From Candidatus Fervidifonticultor secundus (GTDB lineage: Bacteria > Sysuimicrobiota > Sysuimicrobiia > Sysuimicrobiales > Humicultoraceae), in the NCBI GenBank assembly GCA_031459385.1, contig JAVKIP010000007.1, positions 32,001-96,000 on the forward strand: a stretch of 64,000 bases of DNA, written 5' to 3'. The notes beneath the pieces are model-generated. The model did not search any database. It was not told the DNA's origin and saw nothing but the letters and a program-made list of their open reading frames with translations. The position numbers were made by a program, and so were the translations under genes. This document shows, piece after piece, positions 26,337-36,816 of this stretch (position 1 is the stretch's first letter; each line of letters opens with the position of its first letter).

Positions 26337-26615
26337 TTCAGGACGGGACGCGGTGGGTCTCGTGGCGCGTCGTGCGACACTGCGGTGGGCACGGTGGCGG
26401 CCGCTTGCCACCCCGCCGCCGGGACGATAGACTAGGCTGGACGCCGGTGCCCGCGAGGCTGCCCGGCGGCTAAAGACGCAGAGAGCAGGAGAACGCGCGG
26501 GGCGGCGCGGCATGCGTCGCTTTTGTTTTTTCAGCCGGAGGAGTTGCCGGTGCTGACACGAACCTCAGGCTACCATGCGGCGCACGCGGCACGAAAGGCG
26601 CGGTTCCTGACGGAC

Positions 26616-27803
26616 GTGGAGGTGGCTGCGGCGCCCGTCCGGGTGGGAGTGTTCACCGACTCCTACCTGCCCCGCATCAGCGGCGTGGTCCGGTCGATCG
26701 AGGCGTTCGTCTCCGAACTGCGACGCCAGGGCCACCACGTCTCGATCTTCGCGCCCGGTTACCGCGGGTTCGTGGACGCCGACCCGGACGTCGTACGCTT
26801 CCCCTCGGTGCGGCCGCCCGGCCATCCTGACTTTCCCCTGGCGATTCCCGTCGACCGTCGGTTCCTGGCCAAGCTGGCGGCGCGGCGCCCGAGCGTGATC
26901 CACACGCACTCGCCGTTCCTGATGGGTGCGGCCGGGCGCTACGCGGCGCGGCGCCTGGGGCTGCCGCTGGTCTTCACCCACCACACGATGTACGCGGAGT
27001 ACGTGCACTACGTGCCGTTGTTCCCGCCGCGGTTGTCGCGCCAGGTGGTGACCCGCTACACCGCGCGCTACTGCAACCGCTGCACCGCGGTGATCGCGCC
27101 CTCCCGGGCCGTCCGGGCGTGGCTGCGGTCCATTGGCGTCGTCACGCCCATCGAGGTCCTGCCCACGGCGGGCTTCGAGCTCGCGCGGTTCGACCGGCTC
27201 GACCCCTCGTGGGTCCGGCCGCGCTATGGGGTGCCGTCCGGGGCGCCGCTCGTGATCACGGTGGGGCGCCTGGCGTCCGAGAAGCGCTTCGACATCCTGC
27301 TGGCGGCGTTTGCCGACGCGGCCCGCGGCGGGCCAGCCCACCTGCTCGTGGTGGGTGGCGGCCCGGAGGCGCCGGTGCTCCGCCACCTGGCCGGCCAGCT
27401 CGGCGTGGGCAGCCAGGTGATCTTCACGGGTCCCCTGGACCACGACCGCGTCCTGGACTGTTACGCCGCCGCCGACGTGTTCGCGTTCGCGTCGCCGACC
27501 GAGACGCAGGGGCTGGTGGTGATCGAGGCCATGGCCGCGGGCTTGCCGGTGGCGGCCGTGCGGGCCGGCGGGGTCGCCGAAGCCGTGGGCGACGGCGAGA
27601 CCGGCCTGCTGGTCGATCCGGATCCCGCGGCGCTGGCCGCCGCGATCCGCCGCCTGCTCCACGACGAGCCCCTGCGGCGCCGCCTCAGCGCCGGGGGCAG
27701 GGAGGTCGCCCGGGCCTATGCCATCGACGTGCTGACGCGCCGGCTGGTCGATCTCTACCGGAACCTGATGACCGATGGACCCCTCGCCGCCACACCCGAC
27801 TAA
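26616..27803 (+). CDS. Glycosyltransferase family 4 (1,2-diacylglycerol 3-alpha-glucosyltransferase-like); start uncertain
   Basis: FTDSYLPRISGV, HTHSPF, HTMYAEYVHY, GRLASEK, SPTETQGLVVIEA. Confidence 0.88.
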   Translation: MEVAAAPVRVGVFTDSYLPRISGVVRSIEAFVSELRRQGHHVSIFAPGYRGFVDADPDVVRFPSVRPPGHPDFPLAIPVDRRFLAKLAARRPSVIHTHSPFLMGAAGRYAARRLGLPLVFTHHTMYAEYVHYVPLFPPRLSRQVVTRYTARYCNRCTAVIAPSRAVRAWLRSIGVVTPIEVLPTAGFELARFDRLDPSWVRPRYGVPSGAPLVITVGRLASEKRFDILLAAFADAARGGPAHLLVVGGGPEAPVLRHLAGQLGVGSQVIFTGPLDHDRVLDCYAAADVFAFASPTETQGLVVIEAMAAGLPVAAVRAGGVAEAVGDGETGLLVDPDPAALAAAIRRLLHDEPLRRRLSAGGREVARAYAIDVLTRRLVDLYRNLMTDGPLAATPD

Positions 27804-27878
27804 CCCCAGGCCGCTTCGCGCGGCGATCACGCCACGGGCGGGCCGCCCCCGCGGTCCGAAACGAGGAGGAGACCCAGC

Positions 27879-30800
27879 GTGCAACTCCGGCGCCTCGAGC
27901 TGATAGGGTTCAAGACGTTCGTCACCCGCACGGAGCTCGAGTTCCATCCGGGTGTCACGGCCATCGTCGGCCCCAACGGCAGCGGGAAGAGCAACATCTT
28001 CGATGCGATCCGCTGGGCGCTGGGCGAGACCAACGCGCGGCTGCTGCGCGGCGGCCGTATGGACGACCTGATCTTCTCCGGGAGCGCCGGCCGCAAGCCG
28101 CACGGGATCGCCCAGGTGTCGCTGACACTGGACAACGGTGCCGGCTTGTTGCCGCTGGAGTTCAGCGAGATCACCGTGACCCGCGCGGTCACCCGCGGCG
28201 GGGAGGGACGCTGCGCCATCAACGGCGTCGACTGTCGGCTGCGGGACGTGCAGATGCTCTTCCTCGGGACGGGCCTGGGCGGCCGGTCGTACGCGCTGAT
28301 CGGGCAGGGCGAGGTCGACGCCGTGCTGCGCGCCACGCCGGTGGAGCGCCGGCAGTGGCTCGAGGAGGCGGCCGGGCTCGCCCGGCACAAGCGCCAGCGC
28401 GTGGAAGCCGAGCGGCGCCTGGCCCATGCCCAGGCGCACCTGGAGCGGCTCACGGACGTCGCCGCAGAGCTGGATGCGCAGCAGCAGGCGCTGGCGGCGC
28501 AGGCCGCGGCCGCCGCGCGCCACGCGAGCCTCACGGAGGAGGTACGGGACCTCGAGCTGGCGCTGTTCGCCGACGAGGCCCGGCGGCTGCTGGCCGCGGT
28601 CCGCCGGCTCGGCGCCCAGGTCGCTGCCGAACGCGACGCGCAGGCGGCCGCCGCTCGGCGGCAGGCCGCCGCGGCCGCCGCAGTCGCCCAGGCTGAGACC
28701 GCCCTGGCAGAGGCGACGGCGGCGTTCGAGCGCGGGCAGGCGACGCTGCTGGAGGGCGCCGAGCAGGTGACCCGACTGGCCATGGACGCGCAGGCCCTGG
28801 CCGCGCGGGCCGACGCGCTGCGCGCCGGGCACGACCACCTGGCCGACGAGGGGGCGCGGCTTGGGGCGGCGCTGGAACGCCTGCACGCAGAGACCGCGGC
28901 CCTCGAGCAGGAGGCCGCGGCCGGTCAGGACGAGCGCCAGCAGCTGACGGCGGTGGTGGCGGCGGCCGAGGCCGCCCTGGCCGCCGCGCACGATGCCGTA
29001 GCGCAGAGCCAGACGAGGCTCGGTGCCGTCCGCGACGAGGTCGCAGAGGTGGTGCGCTCGCTGGCACAGGCCCGGCGCGACCTGGCCGCGGCGAAGGCGC
29101 GGGCGGCCGTGCTGGACCAGTCGGCGGAGGCTGCGGCCGAGAAGGCGCGCGCCGTGCGGGAGGCGGCCCGGCGCGCAGAGGAGGACCGCGACGCGGCGCA
29201 GGACGCCGTGGTCCGGGCCCGGGCGGCGGCCGCGGCGGCCGCCGACCAGGTGACGGCCGCGGCAGCGGTCCTGGAGGCCCGGCGCGCGGAGTGGGCGGCG
29301 CTCATCGAGCAGGTGCACGAGGTCGAGCTGGAGGAGCACCGGCTGCGGGCACGCCTCGCATCCATCGAGGAGGCACACCGGGAGCTCGTCGGGCTCGACG
29401 AGGGCGCGCGTGCGATCCTGCTCGCGGCTCGCGACCACCCCGGCCGGTTTCCCGGCCTGCGTGGCGCGGTGGCCGAACTGGTGGACGCGCCCGAGGACCT
29501 GCGGCCGGCGATCACCGCAGCGTTGGGCCGCCGTCTGCACTGTCTGGTCGTTGAGCGCCGCGACCAGATCCAGGCCGTGCTCGACTTCCTGTCCGCCGAC
29601 GGCCCGCGCGCCGCGACGATCGTGGCCCTCGAGGATCTGCGGCCCGTGCCGGGCCGGGCCCGGGGCACGAACGGACCGTACGAGGGCCTGCACGCAGCCG
29701 CCGCCGTCCGGCCCGCAGACGGCCACGAGGAGCTGGCCCGGCGGCTGGCAGAGGCGCTGCTGGGCGACGTGGTCGTCGTGGACGACCTGGAAGCCGCGTG
29801 GCGGCTCGTCGCCGGGGGCTTCGAGGGCCGTGCGGCGACTCGAGACGGCCTGCTGGTGGAGCCCGACGGCGTCCTCTCCCTGGGCGGCTGGCCCGCGGGC
29901 GAGCTGGCCCCGCTCGGCCGCGGCCAGGCCATTGCGATGCTGCGGCAGACGCTGGCGGAGATCGAGCGCACGCGGCTCGAGCTCGTCGTACGCCGGGCGG
30001 CGGCAGCCGAGCGCGTCCGCGAGGCCGATGAGGGGCTGGAGCGGGCGCGCGCCGCGGTCGAGCGCGCCCAGGCGGCAGCCTTCGAGCGCACGCAGCAGCT
30101 CGAGCGTCTCGCGACAGCGGCGAGCCGCTTGCAGGCCGAGGCGCAGGTCCTCGAGGACGAGCGCGGTTCGCGCGACGACGAACGCAGGCGCCTGGCGGCC
30201 CAGGTGCAGGGGCTGGAAGCAGACGCCACGCGGCTCGAGGACGAAGCGCGCCGGCTGGAGGCGCTGCAGGCCGCCCTGGAGGCGGACGGCGCGCGGGCGG
30301 CTGCCGCGTACGAGATGGCGGCGGCAGACCTCCAGGCCGCGCGCTTGCGGATGGCCGAGGCCGAGGGACGCGTGCAGGCGCTGCGCGCGCGCGTGGCCGA
30401 CCGGCGGGCGAGCGCCGTAGAGATCGAGCGCCGCCTCCAGGAGATCGAGACGGCGCAGCAGGAAGCCGCGCAGGCCGTGGCCGAGGTCGAGCAGCGCCGG
30501 CGGGCGGCCGCAGCCGCGCACGACGCGCTGCTGGCGAGCCAGGCTGCCGCCAAGGCCGACCTCGAGCGCCTCCAGGCCGAGCGTGGCGCGCTGCGCGAGG
30601 CGTTGCGCGAGCTCGGGCCGGTGAACCTGCGCGCGGCCGACGAACACGCCGCGGTGACCGCGCGCCTGGACGCTCTGCGGGCCCAGATCGACGACCTGCG
30701 CGAGGCGTCGGCGCTGCTGCGGGACGTCATCGGCCAGATCAACGCCGCACTGCGCGTGCGCTTCCGCCAGACCTTCGAGGACGTGAACGCCGAGTTCGGC

Positions 30801-31280
30801 CGCCTGTTCCAGCGCCTGTTCCAGGGTGGGGGCGGGCAGCTGGAGCTCGTGGAGAGCGACGACGGCGGCGAACCGGGCCTGGAGGTGATCGCCCAGCTGC
30901 CAGGCAAGATGCGCCGGCCGCTGGTGGCGCTCTCGGGCGGCGAACGGGTGCTGGTGGCGCTGGCGCTGATCTTCGCCATGCTGCGCGTCCACCCCAGCCC
31001 CTTCTGCATCTTCGACGAGGTCGAGGCGGCGCTCGACGACGTCAACACTGGGCGGTTCGTGACGCTGTTGCGGGACCTGGCCGAGCGGACCCAGGTCCTG
31101 ATCATCACGCACAACAAGGGGACGATGGCCTGCGCCGACGTCCTCTACGGGGTGACGATGCAGGAGCCGGGCATCTCGTCGCTGGTCTCGGTGCGGCTCG
31201 TGCCGCCGCCCAACGGCCAGTCGGCCCCGGAGTACCCGCAGGAGCCGGCCCGCGAGCCGGTGGCGGCCCCGGGCGACTGA
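27879..31280 (+). CDS. smc: Chromosome segregation protein SMC
   Basis: GFKTF, GPNGSGKSN, Q-loop IGQG, coiled coils, hinge, LSGGE, FDEVEAALD, ITH. Confidence 0.96.
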   Translation: MQLRRLELIGFKTFVTRTELEFHPGVTAIVGPNGSGKSNIFDAIRWALGETNARLLRGGRMDDLIFSGSAGRKPHGIAQVSLTLDNGAGLLPLEFSEITVTRAVTRGGEGRCAINGVDCRLRDVQMLFLGTGLGGRSYALIGQGEVDAVLRATPVERRQWLEEAAGLARHKRQRVEAERRLAHAQAHLERLTDVAAELDAQQQALAAQAAAAARHASLTEEVRDLELALFADEARRLLAAVRRLGAQVAAERDAQAAAARRQAAAAAAVAQAETALAEATAAFERGQATLLEGAEQVTRLAMDAQALAARADALRAGHDHLADEGARLGAALERLHAETAALEQEAAAGQDERQQLTAVVAAAEAALAAAHDAVAQSQTRLGAVRDEVAEVVRSLAQARRDLAAAKARAAVLDQSAEAAAEKARAVREAARRAEEDRDAAQDAVVRARAAAAAAADQVTAAAAVLEARRAEWAALIEQVHEVELEEHRLRARLASIEEAHRELVGLDEGARAILLAARDHPGRFPGLRGAVAELVDAPEDLRPAITAALGRRLHCLVVERRDQIQAVLDFLSADGPRAATIVALEDLRPVPGRARGTNGPYEGLHAAAAVRPADGHEELARRLAEALLGDVVVVDDLEAAWRLVAGGFEGRAATRDGLLVEPDGVLSLGGWPAGELAPLGRGQAIAMLRQTLAEIERTRLELVVRRAAAAERVREADEGLERARAAVERAQAAAFERTQQLERLATAASRLQAEAQVLEDERGSRDDERRRLAAQVQGLEADATRLEDEARRLEALQAALEADGARAAAAYEMAAADLQAARLRMAEAEGRVQALRARVADRRASAVEIERRLQEIETAQQEAAQAVAEVEQRRRAAAAAHDALLASQAAAKADLERLQAERGALREALRELGPVNLRAADEHAAVTARLDALRAQIDDLREASALLRDVIGQINAALRVRFRQTFEDVNAEFGRLFQRLFQGGGGQLELVESDDGGEPGLEVIAQLPGKMRRPLVALSGGERVLVALALIFAMLRVHPSPFCIFDEVEAALDDVNTGRFVTLLRDLAERTQVLIITHNKGTMACADVLYGVTMQEPGISSLVSVRLVPPPNGQSAPEYPQEPAREPVAAPGD

Positions 31281-31297
31281 CGGAGCGGGGCGGGCAC

Positions 31298-32260
31298 GTG
31301 CAGGACCGCCCGGGCTGGTTCGGCCGGCTGCGGCAGACCCTGGCGCGGACCCGGGAGGTGCTCGGCGCACGCGTCGAGGCCCTGCTGGCCGGCCCGCTCG
31401 ACCCCGCGTTCTACGACGAGCTGGAAGAACTCCTCGTCCAGGCGGATCTCGGCGTGCCCCTGGCCCGCGTCGTCGTCGACGATCTGCGCGCGCGGACGGC
31501 CGGGGCGGCGCCGCAGGCGATCAGGGCAGCGCTGGCCGACATCCTGCGGGACCGGCTCGGGCCGCCCGGGCGGCTGCAGCTCGAGCCTACCCCCGCCGTG
31601 GTACTCGTGCTAGGCGTGAACGGGTCGGGGAAGACTACGACGATCGGCAAACTGGCGCACCGGCTGGAGCGAGAGGGCCGCCGCGTGCTGCTGGCTGCGG
31701 CCGACACGTTCCGCGCTGCGGCCATCGACCAGCTGGAGGCCTGGGCGGCCCGGGTCGGTGTGCCTGTGATCCGCCACCGAGAGGGCGCCGACCCGGCCGC
31801 GGTGGTCTTCGATGCCGCGCAGGCCGCGCAGGCCCGCCACGTCGACGTGCTGATCGTCGACACCGCCGGCCGGCTGCACACCAAGGTCAACCTCATGGAG
31901 GAGCTCAAGAAGATCGACCGGGTCGTGGCGCGGGCGCTGCCCGGCTCACCCGTGGAGCGCCTGCTCGTCCTGGACGCGACCACGGGCCAGAACGGGCTGG
32001 CGCAGGCACGCGCCTTTCACCAGGCCGTGCGCCTCACCGGCATCGTCATCACCAAGCTGGATGGGACGGCCAAAGGCGGCATCGCCGTGGCGATCGCGCA
32101 GACGCTGCAGGTGCCCATCGTCTTCATCGGAACCGGCGAGGGCCCCGACGATCTGGCGCCCTTCGATCCGGCGGCCTTCGCCCTGGCCCTGCTGGCCGAC
32201 GACGGCGGGGGCGTGGAGCGGCCCGGCATTGACGGCAGGGCCTCGCCCGCGGTACCGTAG
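31298..32260 (+). CDS. ftsY: SRP receptor FtsY (NG domain only)
   Basis: [32 protein letters not shown]. Confidence 0.96.
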
Positions 32261-32295
32261 GGAGGATCTCATCCGTCAAGGGAATCCACTTTACG
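32229..32295 (+). promoter_or_regulatory. Promoter and inverted repeat upstream of ylxM-ffh
   Basis: TTGACG-N18-TACCGT, then CGTCAAG-N8-CTTTACG imperfect palindrome at 32274-32295. Confidence 0.5.
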
Positions 32296-32308
32296 TAGTG
32301 AGGACCCG

Positions 32309-33169
32309 ATGGATCGCGCACTCGCGGGGCGTGACCGTGCCAACCGTCTGCTGGATCGCTACGGCCGCCTGCTGACCACCCGGCAGCGGGAGTTCCTGGT
32401 GCGGTACTACCAGGACGACCTCTCGCTGGGTGAGATCGCGACGCAGCTGCACATCTCGCGGCAGGCGGTGCACGACGGCCTGCGGCGGGCCCTGGGCATG
32501 CTGGAGCGGTTCGAGGCCGCCCTGGGGCTCGTGGCCGGCGCGCAGCGCGCCGGCACGGAGCACTACTTCTCGCGGACCCCGCGGTCGGCCGCGCAGCCCC
32601 GGACCGTGCGCGCGACGCTCCGCGGGCGCCCGTGGGCGTTCCAGGTGGCCCGGGGCGTGTTCGCGCGCCGGGGCGTGGATGCGGGCACCCGCCTGGTGAT
32701 CGAGACGATGCAGATCGACCCCACCGACCGGGTGCTCGACCTGGGCTGTGGTTACGGCGCCATTGGCTTGGTGGCCGCAGCGCTAGCGCCCCGGGGCAGC
32801 GCGTGGCTGATCGACGCCAACGCGCGTGCCGCGGCGCTGGCCCGCGCCAACGCCGCAGCCAACCACCTGGCCAACGTGGCGGTGCTCGTCGGCGACCGCG
32901 CCGCGGCCATCCGGAACGCCTCGATGGACGTCGTGGTCACCAACCCGCCGATCCGCGCGGGCCGGCGCGTGGTGACGGCCTTCATCGATGACGCCCACCG
33001 TGTGCTCCGGCCGGGCGGGCGCTTCTACCTGGTGGCGCGCACCGCGCAGGGCGCCAGGACCCTGGCGCGGCTGATCGAGGCGCGGTTCGGCAGCGTGCGG
33101 CAGGCGGCGCTGCGCGCCGGCTACCGCGTCTACGAGGCAAGGCGCGGCCCGGAGCCCGCGGGTGTTTGA
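32309..33169 (+). CDS. ylxM: YlxM (UPF0122 HTH) fused to an RsmC/YbxB-like class I SAM methyltransferase
   Basis: N-term YGRLLTTRQ..YYQDDLSLGEIA..SRQAVHD; C-term HYFS..GVF..VDAGT, DLGCGYG, TNPPIRAG; one open frame between ftsY and ffh. Confidence 0.88.
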   Translation: MDRALAGRDRANRLLDRYGRLLTTRQREFLVRYYQDDLSLGEIATQLHISRQAVHDGLRRALGMLERFEAALGLVAGAQRAGTEHYFSRTPRSAAQPRTVRATLRGRPWAFQVARGVFARRGVDAGTRLVIETMQIDPTDRVLDLGCGYGAIGLVAAALAPRGSAWLIDANARAAALARANAAANHLANVAVLVGDRAAAIRNASMDVVVTNPPIRAGRRVVTAFIDDAHRVLRPGGRFYLVARTAQGARTLARLIEARFGSVRQAALRAGYRVYEARRGPEPAGV

Positions 33170-34490
33170 GGGGCTGCAGCAGCGTCTGGGCGAGATCGTC
33201 CGCAGGCTGACGGGCCGCGGTGTGCTCTCGGCCGAGGACGTCGACGCCGCACTGCGCGAGGTGCGCCTGGCGCTCCTGGAGGCCGACGTCCACTTCAAGG
33301 TCGTGCGCGACTTCACCGCCCGTCTGCGCGAGGCAGCGGTGGGGCAGGAGGTCTGGAAGCACCTCAACCCCGGCCAGCAGGTCGTCAAGCTCGTCCACGC
33401 CGAGCTCACCCGTCTGCTGGGCGGCGGCGCCCGCGAGCTCCGCTTCGCGCCCGCGCCGCCGTCCGTGGTGCTGCTGGTGGGGCTGAACGGCGTCGGCAAG
33501 ACCACCTCGGCGGCCAAGCTCGCCCGGTGGCTGCGGCGGCGGGGCAAGATGCCCCTGCTGGTGGCCACCGACCTCAAGCGCCCCGCGGCGATCGAGCAGC
33601 TGCGCGTGGTCGGCGCGGCGGTGGGCGTGCCGGTCTTCGCGCAGGACGACGCGCTCGACCCCCTCGCCGTAGCCCGCGCCGCCGTGGCGCACGCCCGCGA
33701 GGCGGGGAGCGACGTCGTGGTGGTGGACTCCGCCGGGCGCCAGCACGCCGACGAGGAGCTCATGGCCGAACTGAGCGCAATGCACGCAGCCCTGCGCCCG
33801 CAGGAGACCCTGCTGGTCCTGGACGCCATGGCCGGGCAGGACGCCGTGACGATGGCCGAGCGCTTCGCGTCGCGCCTGCCCATCGACGGGCTGATCCTCA
33901 CCAAGCTCGACGGCGACGCCCGCGGCGGTGCCGCGCTGTCGGTGGTGGCGACCCTGGGGCGGCCGATCCTGTTCGTCGGGGCCGGCGAGAAGCTCGATGC
34001 CCTGGAGCCCTTCCACCCCGACCGCATGGCGGGACGCATTCTGGGCATGGGTGACGTCCTCACGCTCATCGAGAAGGCTGAGGCCACGGTCTCGGCGGAG
34101 CGTGCCGCCGAGCTCGAGCGCAGGCTGCGCCGCGCGCGGTTCACGTTCGAGGACTTCCTTGAGCAGCTGAAGCAGGTGCGCCAGATGGGCCCGCTCGACC
34201 AGTTGCTGGAGATGATCCCGGGCTTTGCCCGCGCGCGGGCGGTGGGGCTCTCGGTGGACGAGCGTCAGCTCCGGCGCGTCGAGGCCATGATCCAATCCAT
34301 GACGCCCGCCGAGCGCGCGGACCCGGCTCTGATCGACGGCAGCCGGCGCCGGCGGATCGCGCGGGGCAGCGGGACCACGGTCCAGGACGTGAACCGGCTC
34401 TTGAAGCAGTTCGAGGAGACCCGGCGCCTGCTGCGTCACGTGGACGAGCGGGGCCGCAGCGGTCGCGGGTTGCCGTTCCCGCCCCGCTGA
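33162..34490 (+). CDS. ffh: Signal recognition particle protein
   Basis: ALLEADV, GLNGVGKTT, DSAGR, TKLDGDARGG, RILGMGD, M domain SMT..ER, RIARGSG. Confidence 0.97.
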   Translation: MFEGLQQRLGEIVRRLTGRGVLSAEDVDAALREVRLALLEADVHFKVVRDFTARLREAAVGQEVWKHLNPGQQVVKLVHAELTRLLGGGARELRFAPAPPSVVLLVGLNGVGKTTSAAKLARWLRRRGKMPLLVATDLKRPAAIEQLRVVGAAVGVPVFAQDDALDPLAVARAAVAHAREAGSDVVVVDSAGRQHADEELMAELSAMHAALRPQETLLVLDAMAGQDAVTMAERFASRLPIDGLILTKLDGDARGGAALSVVATLGRPILFVGAGEKLDALEPFHPDRMAGRILGMGDVLTLIEKAEATVSAERAAELERRLRRARFTFEDFLEQLKQVRQMGPLDQLLEMIPGFARARAVGLSVDERQLRRVEAMIQSMTPAERADPALIDGSRRRRIARGSGTTVQDVNRLLKQFEETRRLLRHVDERGRSGRGLPFPPR

Positions 34491-34580: not shown

Positions 34581-34856
34581 ATGGCCGTCAAGATCCGCCT
34601 GATGCGCATGGGAGCCAAGCACCAGCCTGTCTACCGGGTGGTGGTGGCCGACTCCCGGACGCCCCGTGGGGGCAAGTACCTCGAGGCGCTGGGCTACTAC
34701 AACCCGCGCACCGAGCCCTCCACGATCCGGCTCGACGAGGACCGGGTGCGCCGGTGGTTGGACCGGGGCGCTCGCCCCTCCCAGGCCGCGCGGGTGCTGC
34801 TGGAGAAGACCGGCATCCTGCGGCGCTGGGAGGCGGGCCGCTCGCAGCCCGCGTAG
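34581..34856 (+). CDS. rpsP: 30S ribosomal protein S16
   Basis: [25 protein letters not shown]. Confidence 0.97.
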
Positions 34857-34866
34857 GGGCCGGGAC

Positions 34867-35169
34867 GTGGCCGCGGCGGACGTGCGGGCGCTCGTCGAGT
34901 ACGTCGTCCGCGGGCTCGTGAGCCAGCCCGCGGCCGTGCGCGTTGAGGCCACTGCGCGCGAGCGTGTGCTGGTCGTGGAGGTGCGGGTCGCGCCGGAGGA
35001 CGTCGGCAAGGTGATCGGGCGCCGCGGCCGGGTGATCGGCGCGCTGCGCACGGTGGCCCGGACCGCGGCGGCGCGGGCCGGCCGCCGCGTGCACGTGGAG
35101 ATCGTCCCGTACCCCCCCATCCAAGGAGGAGCGCATGAGCATTACCCTCGTCCGGCCGGTGGTCGTTAA
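34867..35169 (+). CDS. khpA: KH-domain RNA-binding protein (YlqC/KhpA)
   Basis: EDVGKVIGRRGR GxxG loop, between rpsP and ylqD. Confidence 0.9.
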   Translation: MAAADVRALVEYVVRGLVSQPAAVRVEATARERVLVVEVRVAPEDVGKVIGRRGRVIGALRTVARTAAARAGRRVHVEIVPYPPIQGGAHEHYPRPAGGR

Positions 35170-35539
35170 GGCCATCGTCACCGAGTCGTTCAAGCGCCAG
35201 TATCTCAGCGAGCTCGAGGACATGATCCGGCGCCTCGACGCCGTGATCGGGCAGATCGACACCCAGATCCGGCGCGCGGAGCTCGAGCGGCAGATCACGC
35301 CGCAGTCGCGGGCGATCCGCCAGCAGCTGGAGCTGGAGCGGTCGCGCCAGGAAGCGGCGCGCGCCGAGCTGAGCGCGCGGGTGCGCGAGGCCGAGGCGCT
35401 GGAGCTCCACTCGGAGTTCTCCCAGGGCACGGTGGAGAGCCTGGTCGAGGTGAACATCGGCGACAACTTCTTCTCGCGGCTTGCGCGCACCGAGATCGTC
35501 ATCAAGGATGGGATCGTCATCGAGATCCGCGAGGGGTAG
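35135..35539 (+). CDS. ylqD: YlqD family protein
   Basis: RPVVVKAIVTE..QGTVESLVEVNIGD..EIVIKDG..EIR; strong AAGGAGG RBS. Confidence 0.9.
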   Translation: MSITLVRPVVVKAIVTESFKRQYLSELEDMIRRLDAVIGQIDTQIRRAELERQITPQSRAIRQQLELERSRQEAARAELSARVREAEALELHSEFSQGTVESLVEVNIGDNFFSRLARTEIVIKDGIVIEIREG

Positions 35540-36068
35540 GCCCGCGGGCGCGCCGCCCGCGCCGCCGGCATGGATCGTCGTTGGCAGGATCGTCCGGCCA
35601 CACGGGGTGCGGGGCGAGGTGCGGGTGCGGCCCGAGACGGACTTCCCTGAGCGCCTGGCCGGCCGCCGCCGGGTGCACCTGCGTCGGGAGGGCGCCCTCA
35701 GCCCCGTGGAGATTACCGGGGTGCGCCCGCACGGCGCGGCGCTGCTGGTGACGCTGCGGGGGGTGGACAGTCTCGAGGCTGCCGAGCGCCTGCGGGGGGC
35801 GGAGCTCGTCGTCGCGCGGCGCACGCTGCCGCGGCTGGGGCCGAACGAGTTCTACCTGTTCGAGATCATCGGCCTGCGGGCGCGGACCGAGGACGGGCGG
35901 CTGCTCGGCGTGGTGGCCGAAGTGGTGCGGGGGCCCGCGCACGACGTCTACGTCGTGCGCGGCGAGGCCGGCGAGGTGCTGGTGCCGGCGCTCCGCGAGG
36001 TCGTGCGGCGGGTCGACCGTGCCGCCGGCGAACTGGTCGTCCGCCTGCCCGCTGGCTTGGAGGCGTAG
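35508..36068 (+). CDS. rimM: Ribosome maturation factor RimM (start approximate)
   Basis: [30 protein letters not shown] barrel. Confidence 0.93.
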
Positions 36069-36069
36069 G

Positions 36070-36816
36070 GTGCGGATCGACATCGTCACGATCTTCCCCG
36101 AGGCCATTCGGCCCGCGCTGGAGGTGTCGCTGTTGGGGCGGGCGCGGCAGCGAGGCCTGCTGGCCATCGCTGTCCACGATCTGCGCGACTACACCACCGA
36201 CCGACACCGTCAGGTCGACGACGTCCCCTACGGCGGCGGGCCCGGGATGGTGATGAAGCCCGAACCGTTCTTCGCGGCGGTCGAGGCCCTGACCCCGCCG
36301 GCGGGGCCGCGGCCGCGCGTGCTGCTGACCTCGCCCCAGGGCCGGCGTTTCGACCAGCGGATGGCCGAGGAGCTGAGCCGCGCAGAGCACCTGATCATCC
36401 TGTGCGGCCGCTACGAAGGCGTGGACGAGCGGGTGGTCACCGGGCTGCCCGCCGAGGAGATCTCGATCGGCGACTACGTGCTCGCCGGCGGCGAGCTGGC
36501 GGCGCTGGTCATCGTGGACGCCACCGTGCGACTGCTCCCCGGTGTGGTGGGGGACGCGCAGTCGGTCGCTGCCGACTCCTTCACCGGCGGGCTGCTGGAC
36601 TACCCGCACTACACGCGACCTGCGGAGTTCCGGGGACTGCGCGTGCCCGAGGTCCTGCTCCGCGGCCACCATGCCGAGATCCGCCGCTGGCGTCGCCGCG
36701 AGCAGCTGCGCCGCACCCTGCAGCGCCGGCCCGACCTGCTGGCGCAGGCGGTGCTCAGTGACGAGGACCGGGCGCTGCTGGCCGAGGTCCAGGCCGAGGA
36801 GGCGCGCGGTCGGTAG
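36070..36816 (+). CDS. trmD: tRNA (guanine-N1)-methyltransferase
   Basis: [41 protein letters not shown]. Confidence 0.97.

Follow-up and report, generated by a model that had tools for sequence, protein, structure and literature searches.

The window analysed here is a stretch of 64,000 nucleotides of Candidatus Fervidifonticultor secundus (GenBank assembly GCA_031459385.1, contig JAVKIP010000007.1, positions 32,001 to 96,000 of the forward strand), and the subject of this report is one gene within it, 32309..33169 (+), which joins a domain of YlxM, a protein encoded in the operon for the signal recognition particle (SRP), to a methyltransferase. The gene is a single uninterrupted open reading frame (ORF) of 286 residues with ATG as its first in-frame start codon; its assignment as ylxM::methyltransferase draws on the ORF listing, Pfam, NCBIfam, the sequence search of the Protein Data Bank (PDB) and a structural model. 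A Shine-Dalgarno-like GAGGA, read from the sequence, lies 4 nucleotides 5' of the ATG (32300..32304, +). Residues 8-79 (32330..32545, +) form a YlxM/UPF0122 helix-turn-helix domain with the canonical C-terminal tail missing, as seen with Pfam PF04297, the structures 1xsv and 1s7o, the alignment and the model helices. Residues 77-84 (32537..32560, +) form the junction and a flexible linker (low model confidence, linker alignment, junction DNA), and residues ~85-278 (32561..33142, +) form a complete class I S-adenosylmethionine (SAM) methyltransferase domain with an HYF motif at its start, which the 1dus alignment, Foldseek and PF05175 place in the MJ0882/YbxB type. At its 3' end the gene shares the 8 nucleotides GTGTTTGA (33162..33169, +) with ffh, whose GTG start at 33162 precedes the TGA stop of the fusion (33167-33169), an arrangement of translational coupling.

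These features agree with a first-pass annotation made from the sequence alone, which had described one frame joining a YlxM domain of ~80 residues to a complete small methyltransferase that begins at HYFS and overlaps the ffh start. In Pfam, PF04297 (UPF0122/YlxM) matched residues 8-79 at 73.3 bits (cut-off 22.7, E 2.1e-20) over profile positions 4-75 of 101, and PF05175 (MTS) matched residues 111-276 at 138.9 bits (cut-off 23) over profile positions 4-170 of 170. The YlxM equivalog NF045758 of NCBIfam was barely passed, with 80.1 bits against a cut-off of 80, and the N-terminal domain also matched the Pfam family of sigma-70 region 4 (31.6 bits). In the PDB sequence search MJ0882 (1dus_A, residues 1-192 of 194) was aligned end to end with residues 87-278 (E 1e-35), and the methyltransferase is therefore complete, beginning at the EHYFS motif. 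The YlxM structure 1xsv (113 residues) was aligned through its residues 14-80 with residues 10-76 of the fusion; since this alignment ends at residue 80 of 113, ~30 C-terminal residues of canonical YlxM are missing from the fusion. The helix-turn-helix core of S. mutans YlxM, 1XSV and 1S7O resembles the N-terminus of the fusion, and their gene likewise stands just before ffh; canonical YlxM, however, keeps its C-terminal helix, whereas the domain described here ends after ~80 residues and is covalently joined to the methyltransferase. The statement of the first-pass annotation that YlxM is normally a stand-alone protein of ~110 residues encoded before ffh is in keeping with the accessible part of PMC8546722 and with the 113 residues of 1xsv. 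The gene in the window retains the position upstream of ffh in the SRP operon, with the methyltransferase domain inserted between the YlxM domain and ffh, but its product is not a stand-alone protein of this kind, the C-terminal helix being replaced by the linker and the methyltransferase.

An AlphaFold2 model of the fusion was built on a 120-sequence alignment and reached a mean predicted local distance difference test (pLDDT) of 90 and a predicted template modelling score (pTM) of 0.71, with two confident domains. The N-terminal domain is modelled as four helices (residues 2-21, 24-35, 40-47 and 51-79) and the Rossmann-type domain as beginning at residue 98. The stretch between them is of low confidence, with pLDDT <50 at residues 77-83 and no secondary structure at residues 80-97; in the linker alignment the linker length among fused relatives varies from ~6 to 28 residues. 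A Foldseek search against the PDB ranked MJ0882 (1dus) first, with a target-normalised template modelling (TM) score of 0.90 and a root-mean-square deviation of 1.9 Å; the next ranks were taken by T. thermophilus RsmC, which forms N2-methylguanosine (m2G) 1207 of 16S rRNA, E. coli RlmG (23S m2G1835) and E. coli RsmC. SAM-binding motif I, VLDLGCGYG, occupies residues 142-150 (32732..32758, +), and catalytic motif IV, NPPI, occupies residues 212-215 (32942..32953, +) and aligns with NPPIRAG of MJ0882. Invariant in the 120-row alignment were Y86, the motif I columns D144, G146, G148 and G150, and the motif IV columns N212 and P214, with H85 and P213 near-invariant; the same motif columns were invariant or nearly so among 32 stand-alone homologues. 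The family motifs HYF, D-x-G-x-G-x-G and NPP(I) are thus all present in the fused methyltransferase domain.

The genome of the window (G000; 97.6% complete, metagenome-assembled) was compared with a phylum sample of 94 species genomes from one order and seven families (f1-f7). A full-length fused frame without internal stop, at 64-86% identity, was found in 23 of the 94 genomes, all in family f1 and distributed over eight genera (g1, g4, g5, g6, g7, g8, g10 and g11); the refuting case named in the first-pass annotation, a fusion confined to this assembly, is therefore not borne out. A narrower set gave a full-length stop-free frame in 17 of 41 relatives. One of the 23 genomes (G019, g11) is flagged unpublished; leaving it out gives 22 of 93, with g11 still represented by G012. 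One genome (G049, g4) showed the methyltransferase part alone, at a contig end, and two (G043 and G010, the latter unpublished) gave no match at E 1e-10. An additional stop-free fused copy is present in a named public record of a metagenome-assembled genome (L054), and both Pfam domains were found in 87 of 120 listed protein clusters at 90% identity (P0001-P0086 and P0101). Of the 150 best matches in a set of 1.84 billion cluster representatives, P0080 alone spanned both domains, and seven longer representatives, which are extended at the N-terminus (P0157, P0180, P0225, P0207, P0230, P0163 and P0134), had no YlxM domain. A word-based search for longer proteins with the YlxM part, which reaches close relatives only, returned 79 proteins, all with the same YlxM+MTS pair and none with another partner. 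In these protein-space searches the fusion was seen in this lineage only. Two shorter YlxM+MTS proteins with the source marked 'src', P0101 (231 residues) and P0270 (164 residues), could represent forms of the fusion shortened by truncation or deletion; the MTS match of P0101 begins only at profile position 15.

Read support at the junction (~32540-32560) was obtained from Logan contigs of four runs, each of which spans at least 32100-33052 with 0 differences and 0 gaps, although the four runs come from one study, possibly the source of the assembly, so that this support is not independent. Two 'joints' in the contig comparison were disregarded, since each is a side match of 22-23 nucleotides to a long contig from another organism. 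Because the same stop-free frame recurs in 23 genomes, the junction is not an assembly artefact. Pairwise Nei-Gojobori estimates among 12 fused genes gave a median ratio of nonsynonymous to synonymous substitution rates (dN/dS) of 0.218 for the YlxM part (residues 1-76, 65 of 66 pairs usable) and of 0.240 for the methyltransferase part (residues 84-280, 66 of 66 pairs usable); both halves of the fusion are under similar purifying selection. The helix-turn-helix core is conserved as in relatives with split genes, with invariant LLT..Q, SL.EI and RQAVHD motifs.

A separate methyltransferase match was found in 66 genomes of the phylum, and in at least 60 of these (counted by eye) ylxM lies just upstream on the same contig; in the remaining 6 it is perhaps among 36 unlisted matches or at contig ends. 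Every locus fetched, 12 fused and 20 split, has the order ylxM, methyltransferase, ffh, and most have ftsY upstream. The stop of ylxM and the start of the methyltransferase gene overlap by 4 nucleotides (RTGA) in 14 of the 20 split loci. Among 30 evaluable loci, 25 have the sequence RTGTTTGA, which holds the methyltransferase stop within the start of ffh, whether the locus is fused or split. The nested codons read RTG TTT GA, and Ffh begins M-F-E/D; lying inside the conserved first codons of ffh, the stop is held in place by the N-terminal sequence of Ffh throughout the phylum. In most loci examined, and in every family sampled, ylxM, the methyltransferase gene and ffh form a translationally coupled unit.

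The state of YlxM differs among the families. In f2-f7 it has 106-138 residues and carries a ~40-residue C-terminal helical tail of the pattern ARRR..RLDALE..I..L (L026-L028, L033-L043). In the split genomes G004, G014, G013 and G018 of f1 it has just 84-92 residues, the tail being gone and the GTGA overlap kept (L024, L029, L030 and L032); in one example the ylxM frame ends with CTG CGG TGA and the methyltransferase frame opens with GTG AGC GTC CAC TAC TTT, i.e., M-S-V-H-Y-F. In the fused genes ...GLV is followed by 6 to 28 variable residues and then by EHYF.... The tail-less YlxM and the stop/start overlap of the split f1 relatives indicate that the fusion is a merging of frames at the overlap after loss of the tail. 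In a tree of Ffh from 30 loci (L007 and L034 were omitted, their Ffh matches being short) the 11 fused rows formed one side of a branch with a Shimodaira-Hasegawa-like approximate likelihood ratio test (SH-aLRT) support of 99, requiring one change, and in the methyltransferase tree the fused copies formed one clade of 13 with a support of 99. A single origin of the fusion fits both trees. A different arrangement was seen in G003 (L025), where YlxM has 156 residues with a Pro/Ala-rich tail and there is a spacer of ~100 nucleotides. G027 (with one TAG) and G031 were considered as broken fusions and rejected, their junction DNA being that of ordinary split genes.

On the basis of sequence and the model, the fused domain is assigned to the MJ0882/YbxB single-domain family. 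MJ0882 of Methanocaldococcus jannaschii is the best match in both sequence (35% identity over 192 of 194 residues) and fold; unlike the fusion it is archaeal and stand-alone and has no YlxM domain. We know of no substrate for MJ0882. The YbxB proteins of Bacilli share with the window enzyme a single PF05175 domain of ~200 residues and the motifs HYF, DLGCGYG and NPPIRAG, but are encoded by a stand-alone gene between rplL and rpoB, whereas the window enzyme is fused to YlxM and encoded between ftsY and ffh. The YbxB orthologue of Geobacillus thermodenitrificans (L099:3974-4603) resembles the window domain with 38-39% identity over the full length, and the window domain is the only match of the Geobacillus protein in G000. 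RsmC (E. coli 2PJD; T. thermophilus 3DMF and 2ZUL) and RlmG (4DCM) have the catalytic fold and the NPP motif in common with the window domain, but they are proteins of ~340-380 residues with an N-terminal methyltransferase-like domain, and the fusion is without MTS_N. RsmC makes m2G1207 in helix 34 of 16S rRNA. Membership of the window enzyme in RsmC proper (NF007023) was rejected because the N-terminal domain is absent (match to the C-terminal domain only, PF08468 not found) and the equivalog score is low (67.8 bits vs a cut-off of 295). In the methyltransferase tree, a quick search with amino-acid composition warnings, the single-domain enzymes split from the RsmC-like C-terminal domains with a support of 97.

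The genomic surroundings of this family were surveyed in 80 loci obtained by scanning species genomes with the alignment of 32 stand-alone homologues. The gene adjoins rpoB in 46 of the 80 loci (rplJ-rplL-methyltransferase-rpoB where the flank is present), nearly all from Bacilli and their relatives, as the first-pass annotation had stated for ybxB; the Geobacillus locus was verified by Pfam. The order ftsY-ylxM-methyltransferase-ffh occurred in five loci, and neither context in 29 (17 bacterial, 12 archaeal). Among the five, two have a methyltransferase part identical to phylum loci already fetched, and the other three group with the enzymes of the phylum on the tree and encode an Ffh 65-76% identical to that of the window. 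Three proteins of ~405-424 residues (P0121, P0123 and P0087, one of them labelled Chloroflexi) contain two tandem MTS domains, each 41-43% identical to the small methyltransferase; they seem to stem from a separate tandem duplication that produced a two-domain layout like that of RsmC. The methyltransferase of L058, a record labelled Candidatus Sulfotelmatobacter (Acidobacteriota), was placed inside a Bathyarchaeota clade with a support of 99, which could be due to horizontal transfer or a binning error.

No separate ybxB was detected in G000: a second full-length PF05175 gene was not found in the genome (the next best match is partial, with 45.6 bits), and no methyltransferase lies in the ~400 nucleotides between rplL (end ~C26:9366) and rpoB (homology from ~C26:9784). 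In the genome scan no PF04297 match was found outside the fusion. According to the accessible portion of a preprint (bioRxiv 10.64898/2026.05.25.727669), B. subtilis YbxB adds ~1 m2G per 16S rRNA, on helix 34, and a ΔybxB mutant is resistant to streptomycin and has a growth defect at 25 °C. By analogy with its characterised relatives, the enzyme described here most likely produces m2G at the helix 34 guanine of 16S rRNA.

The fusion gene is embedded in an operon with the order smc, ftsY, fusion, ffh, rpsP, khpA, ylqD, rimM, trmD, which we take to be the B. subtilis arrangement with a methyltransferase added. All genes listed here are on the plus strand: ftsY, encoding the SRP receptor, at 31298..32260, 48 nucleotides 5' of the fusion gene (Pfam SRP54 262.6 bits, SRP54_N); ffh, the SRP54 homologue, at 33162..34490 (SRP54, SRP_SPB, SRP54_N); rpsP at 34581-34856 (Ribosomal_S16); khpA, with its KH domain at ~34888-35103 (KH_KhpA-B); ylqD at 35135-35539 (YlqD); rimM at 35481-36068 (RimM); and trmD at 36019-36816 (tRNA_m1G_MT). 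The genome also encodes a full-length large Alu-type SRP RNA of 266 nucleotides (C9:4383-4648, -; RF01854, 181.9 bits), a type of SRP RNA also found in Bacillus. With this RNA and with YlxM, KhpA and YlqD, the SRP/ribosome operon is Bacillus-like in a phylum whose records are without a Firmicutes label. Opposite smc, antisense ORFs of up to 1601 residues were noted (e.g., 26565-31370 (-) and 28925-31117 (-)); from their Arg/Ala/Pro/Gly-rich composition they look like stop-poor frames of GC-rich DNA and not like genes.

As far as the accessible parts of two sources extend (PMC8546722; bioRxiv 10.64898/2026.05.13.724699), S. mutans YlxM has Ffh and SRP RNA, though not FtsY, as binding partners and modulates GTP hydrolysis; it also interacts with YidC1/2 and, in B. 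subtilis, with YneF; and YlxM is described as Firmicute-specific or Gram-positive-specific. It is essential in a minimal cell. The proteins reported here come from outside the Firmicutes, the public records being labelled 'Armatimonadota bacterium', 'Bacillati bacterium ANGP1' or 'bacterium'.

What the comparison shows is a genuine two-domain protein of single origin, seen in one family of hot-spring bacteria within an uncultivated phylum and maintained by purifying selection on both domains, with conserved synteny and intact catalytic motifs. The reading which we favour, with a probability of roughly 0.55, is that this protein retains the jobs of both parental proteins in one chain; its substrate, SRP binding by the shortened YlxM domain and any cooperation between the domains are inferred. 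In the ancestor, ylxM and a gene of the YbxB/MJ0882 type would have been adjacent and translationally coupled between ftsY and ffh. YlxM would first have lost its C-terminal helical tail of ~40 residues, and a small indel at the 4-nucleotide RTGA stop/start overlap would then have merged the two frames, so that the helix-turn-helix core would run through a short flexible linker into the EHYF start of the methyltransferase. The C-terminal domain would carry out the SAM-dependent formation of N2-methylguanosine in helix 34 of 16S rRNA, at the equivalent of G1207, as is reported for B. subtilis YbxB and RsmC. Like S. mutans YlxM, the N-terminal domain would have Ffh, the large Alu-type SRP RNA or both as its ligands. 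Joined in this way, the two domains would occur in a fixed 1:1 ratio, with both still translationally coupled to ffh. Since the operon already holds rpsP, khpA, rimM and trmD, the presence of a 16S rRNA enzyme in it needs no SRP-specific explanation.

Several points weigh against this reading. Orthology with YbxB is plausible on sequence grounds, yet the enzymes of the phylum lie outside the YbxB clade of Bacilli, near the base of the single-domain family (in the quick tree with its composition warnings), and they are no closer to YbxB (33-44% identity) than to archaeal MJ0882-like proteins (34-40%). The function proposed for this phylum draws by analogy on characterised relatives from outside it, and the YbxB preprint (10.64898/2026.05.25.727669), in its accessible portion, leaves room for a second, 23S-related effect of YbxB. 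The YlxM domain, for which binding of Ffh or SRP RNA is predicted, is without the last third of the chain seen in crystallised YlxM proteins. Finally, genes that are tightly coupled on both sides throughout the phylum and later fuse amount to more than operon neighbours and would also fit a joint function, which the favoured reading does not need; a double coupling and then a retained fusion would be expected of proteins acting together.

Among the alternatives, the one that survives best, although we consider it improbable, is that the YlxM domain has been re-purposed: its tail-less core would now be mainly an RNA-binding or substrate-recognition module, comparable to the extra N-terminal domain of RsmC, and its role in SRP would be reduced or lost. 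It is suggested by the loss of the tail in f1 in both the short split forms (84-92 residues) and the fused forms, by the lack of the N-terminal domain of RsmC and RlmG in the single-domain YbxB/MJ0882 proteins, by the absence of another ylxM from the genome and by the shortness of the linker (~6-28 residues). The core is nevertheless conserved as in the split relatives, with its LLT..Q, SL.EI and RQAVHD motifs invariant and a dN/dS of 0.22, the gene is still translationally coupled to ffh, and the model gives no confident contact between the domains, the segment between them being disordered.

Somewhat more doubtful still is methylation directed by SRP, in which the YlxM domain would dock the enzyme on Ffh or SRP RNA, SRP RNA or SRP-engaged ribosomes would be methylated, and the two proteins would already cooperate where their genes are split. 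The first-pass annotation had proposed such a target from the fusion. Of that proposal, some functional or expression link between YlxM and the methyltransferase is supported by the conservation of the fusion in eight genera and by the gene adjacency across the phylum; SRP as the site of methylation is the part that we hold to be doubtful. In its favour are the adjacency of the two genes, which was counted in at least 60 of 66 split genomes and held for every one of the 20 split loci fetched, the 4-nucleotide overlap of ylxM and methyltransferase (14 of 20) together with the 8-nucleotide overlap with ffh (25 of 30), the persistence of the fusion across the divergence of eight genera with both domains constrained, the 266-nucleotide Alu-type SRP RNA of the genome, and the binding of SRP RNA and Ffh by S. 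mutans YlxM, as given in the accessible part of PMC8546722. Against it, the characterised structural relatives all act on rRNA, where the nearest ones make m2G, and B. subtilis YbxB acts on 16S rRNA (10.64898/2026.05.25.727669, accessible portion). The methyltransferase of Bacilli is encoded at rplL-rpoB (46 of 80 loci), far from ylxM-ffh, and so no such partnership is visible in gene order there. Because G000 has no other candidate for the helix 34 m2G, the fused enzyme probably still serves the ribosome. We also know of no methylation described for a bacterial SRP RNA, although no search was aimed at this.

It is very unlikely that the protein is a DNA-binding regulator, in which YlxM would control the operon and the fused fold would be a SAM-sensing or otherwise non-catalytic module. 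The match to sigma-70 region 4 (31.6 bits) and the NCBI family name 'YlxM family DNA-binding protein' point in that direction, but the NPPI and SAM-binding motifs are invariant, as would be expected of an active enzyme, and the experimental data on YlxM in the accessible parts of PMC8546722 and 10.64898/2026.05.13.724699 concern SRP and not transcription. A frameshift introduced in sequencing or assembly, or recent read-through in a decaying gene, which might be suspected in a metagenome-assembled genome whose confirming runs come from one study and possibly from the source of the assembly, is effectively refuted by the same frame in 23 genomes of eight genera without internal stops, by purifying selection on both domains and by the catalytic motifs, all of which are intact.

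In the literature on YlxM, YbxB or UPF0122, consulted mostly by titles and abstracts, no printed description of the YlxM-methyltransferase architecture was found; public fused proteins carry automatic names such as '16S rRNA (guanine1207-N2)-methyltransferase', 'methyltransferase' or 'YlxM family DNA-binding protein'. YbxB was assigned to the 16S m2G only in a 2026 preprint (10.64898/2026.05.25.727669), and the mechanism of YlxM is still unclear, as far as the accessible portions of the sources go. Against this background, the fusion and the phylum-wide coupling pose the question of whether YlxM brings the methyltransferase to SRP or to the ribosome. If YlxM, free or fused, delivers the YbxB-type enzyme to SRP throughout the phylum, where it would methylate the large SRP RNA or the 30S subunit in an SRP-coupled step, which we regard as a tentative idea with the odds against it, this would be the first link between SRP targeting and RNA methylation and would give the poorly understood YlxM a concrete function as an adaptor. 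If there is no such delivery, the locus is still a clean stepwise case of overlapping stop and start codons turning operon neighbours into one protein, and it adds to the known range of YlxM and of the Bacillus-type SRP operon a phylum that carries no Firmicutes label in public records.

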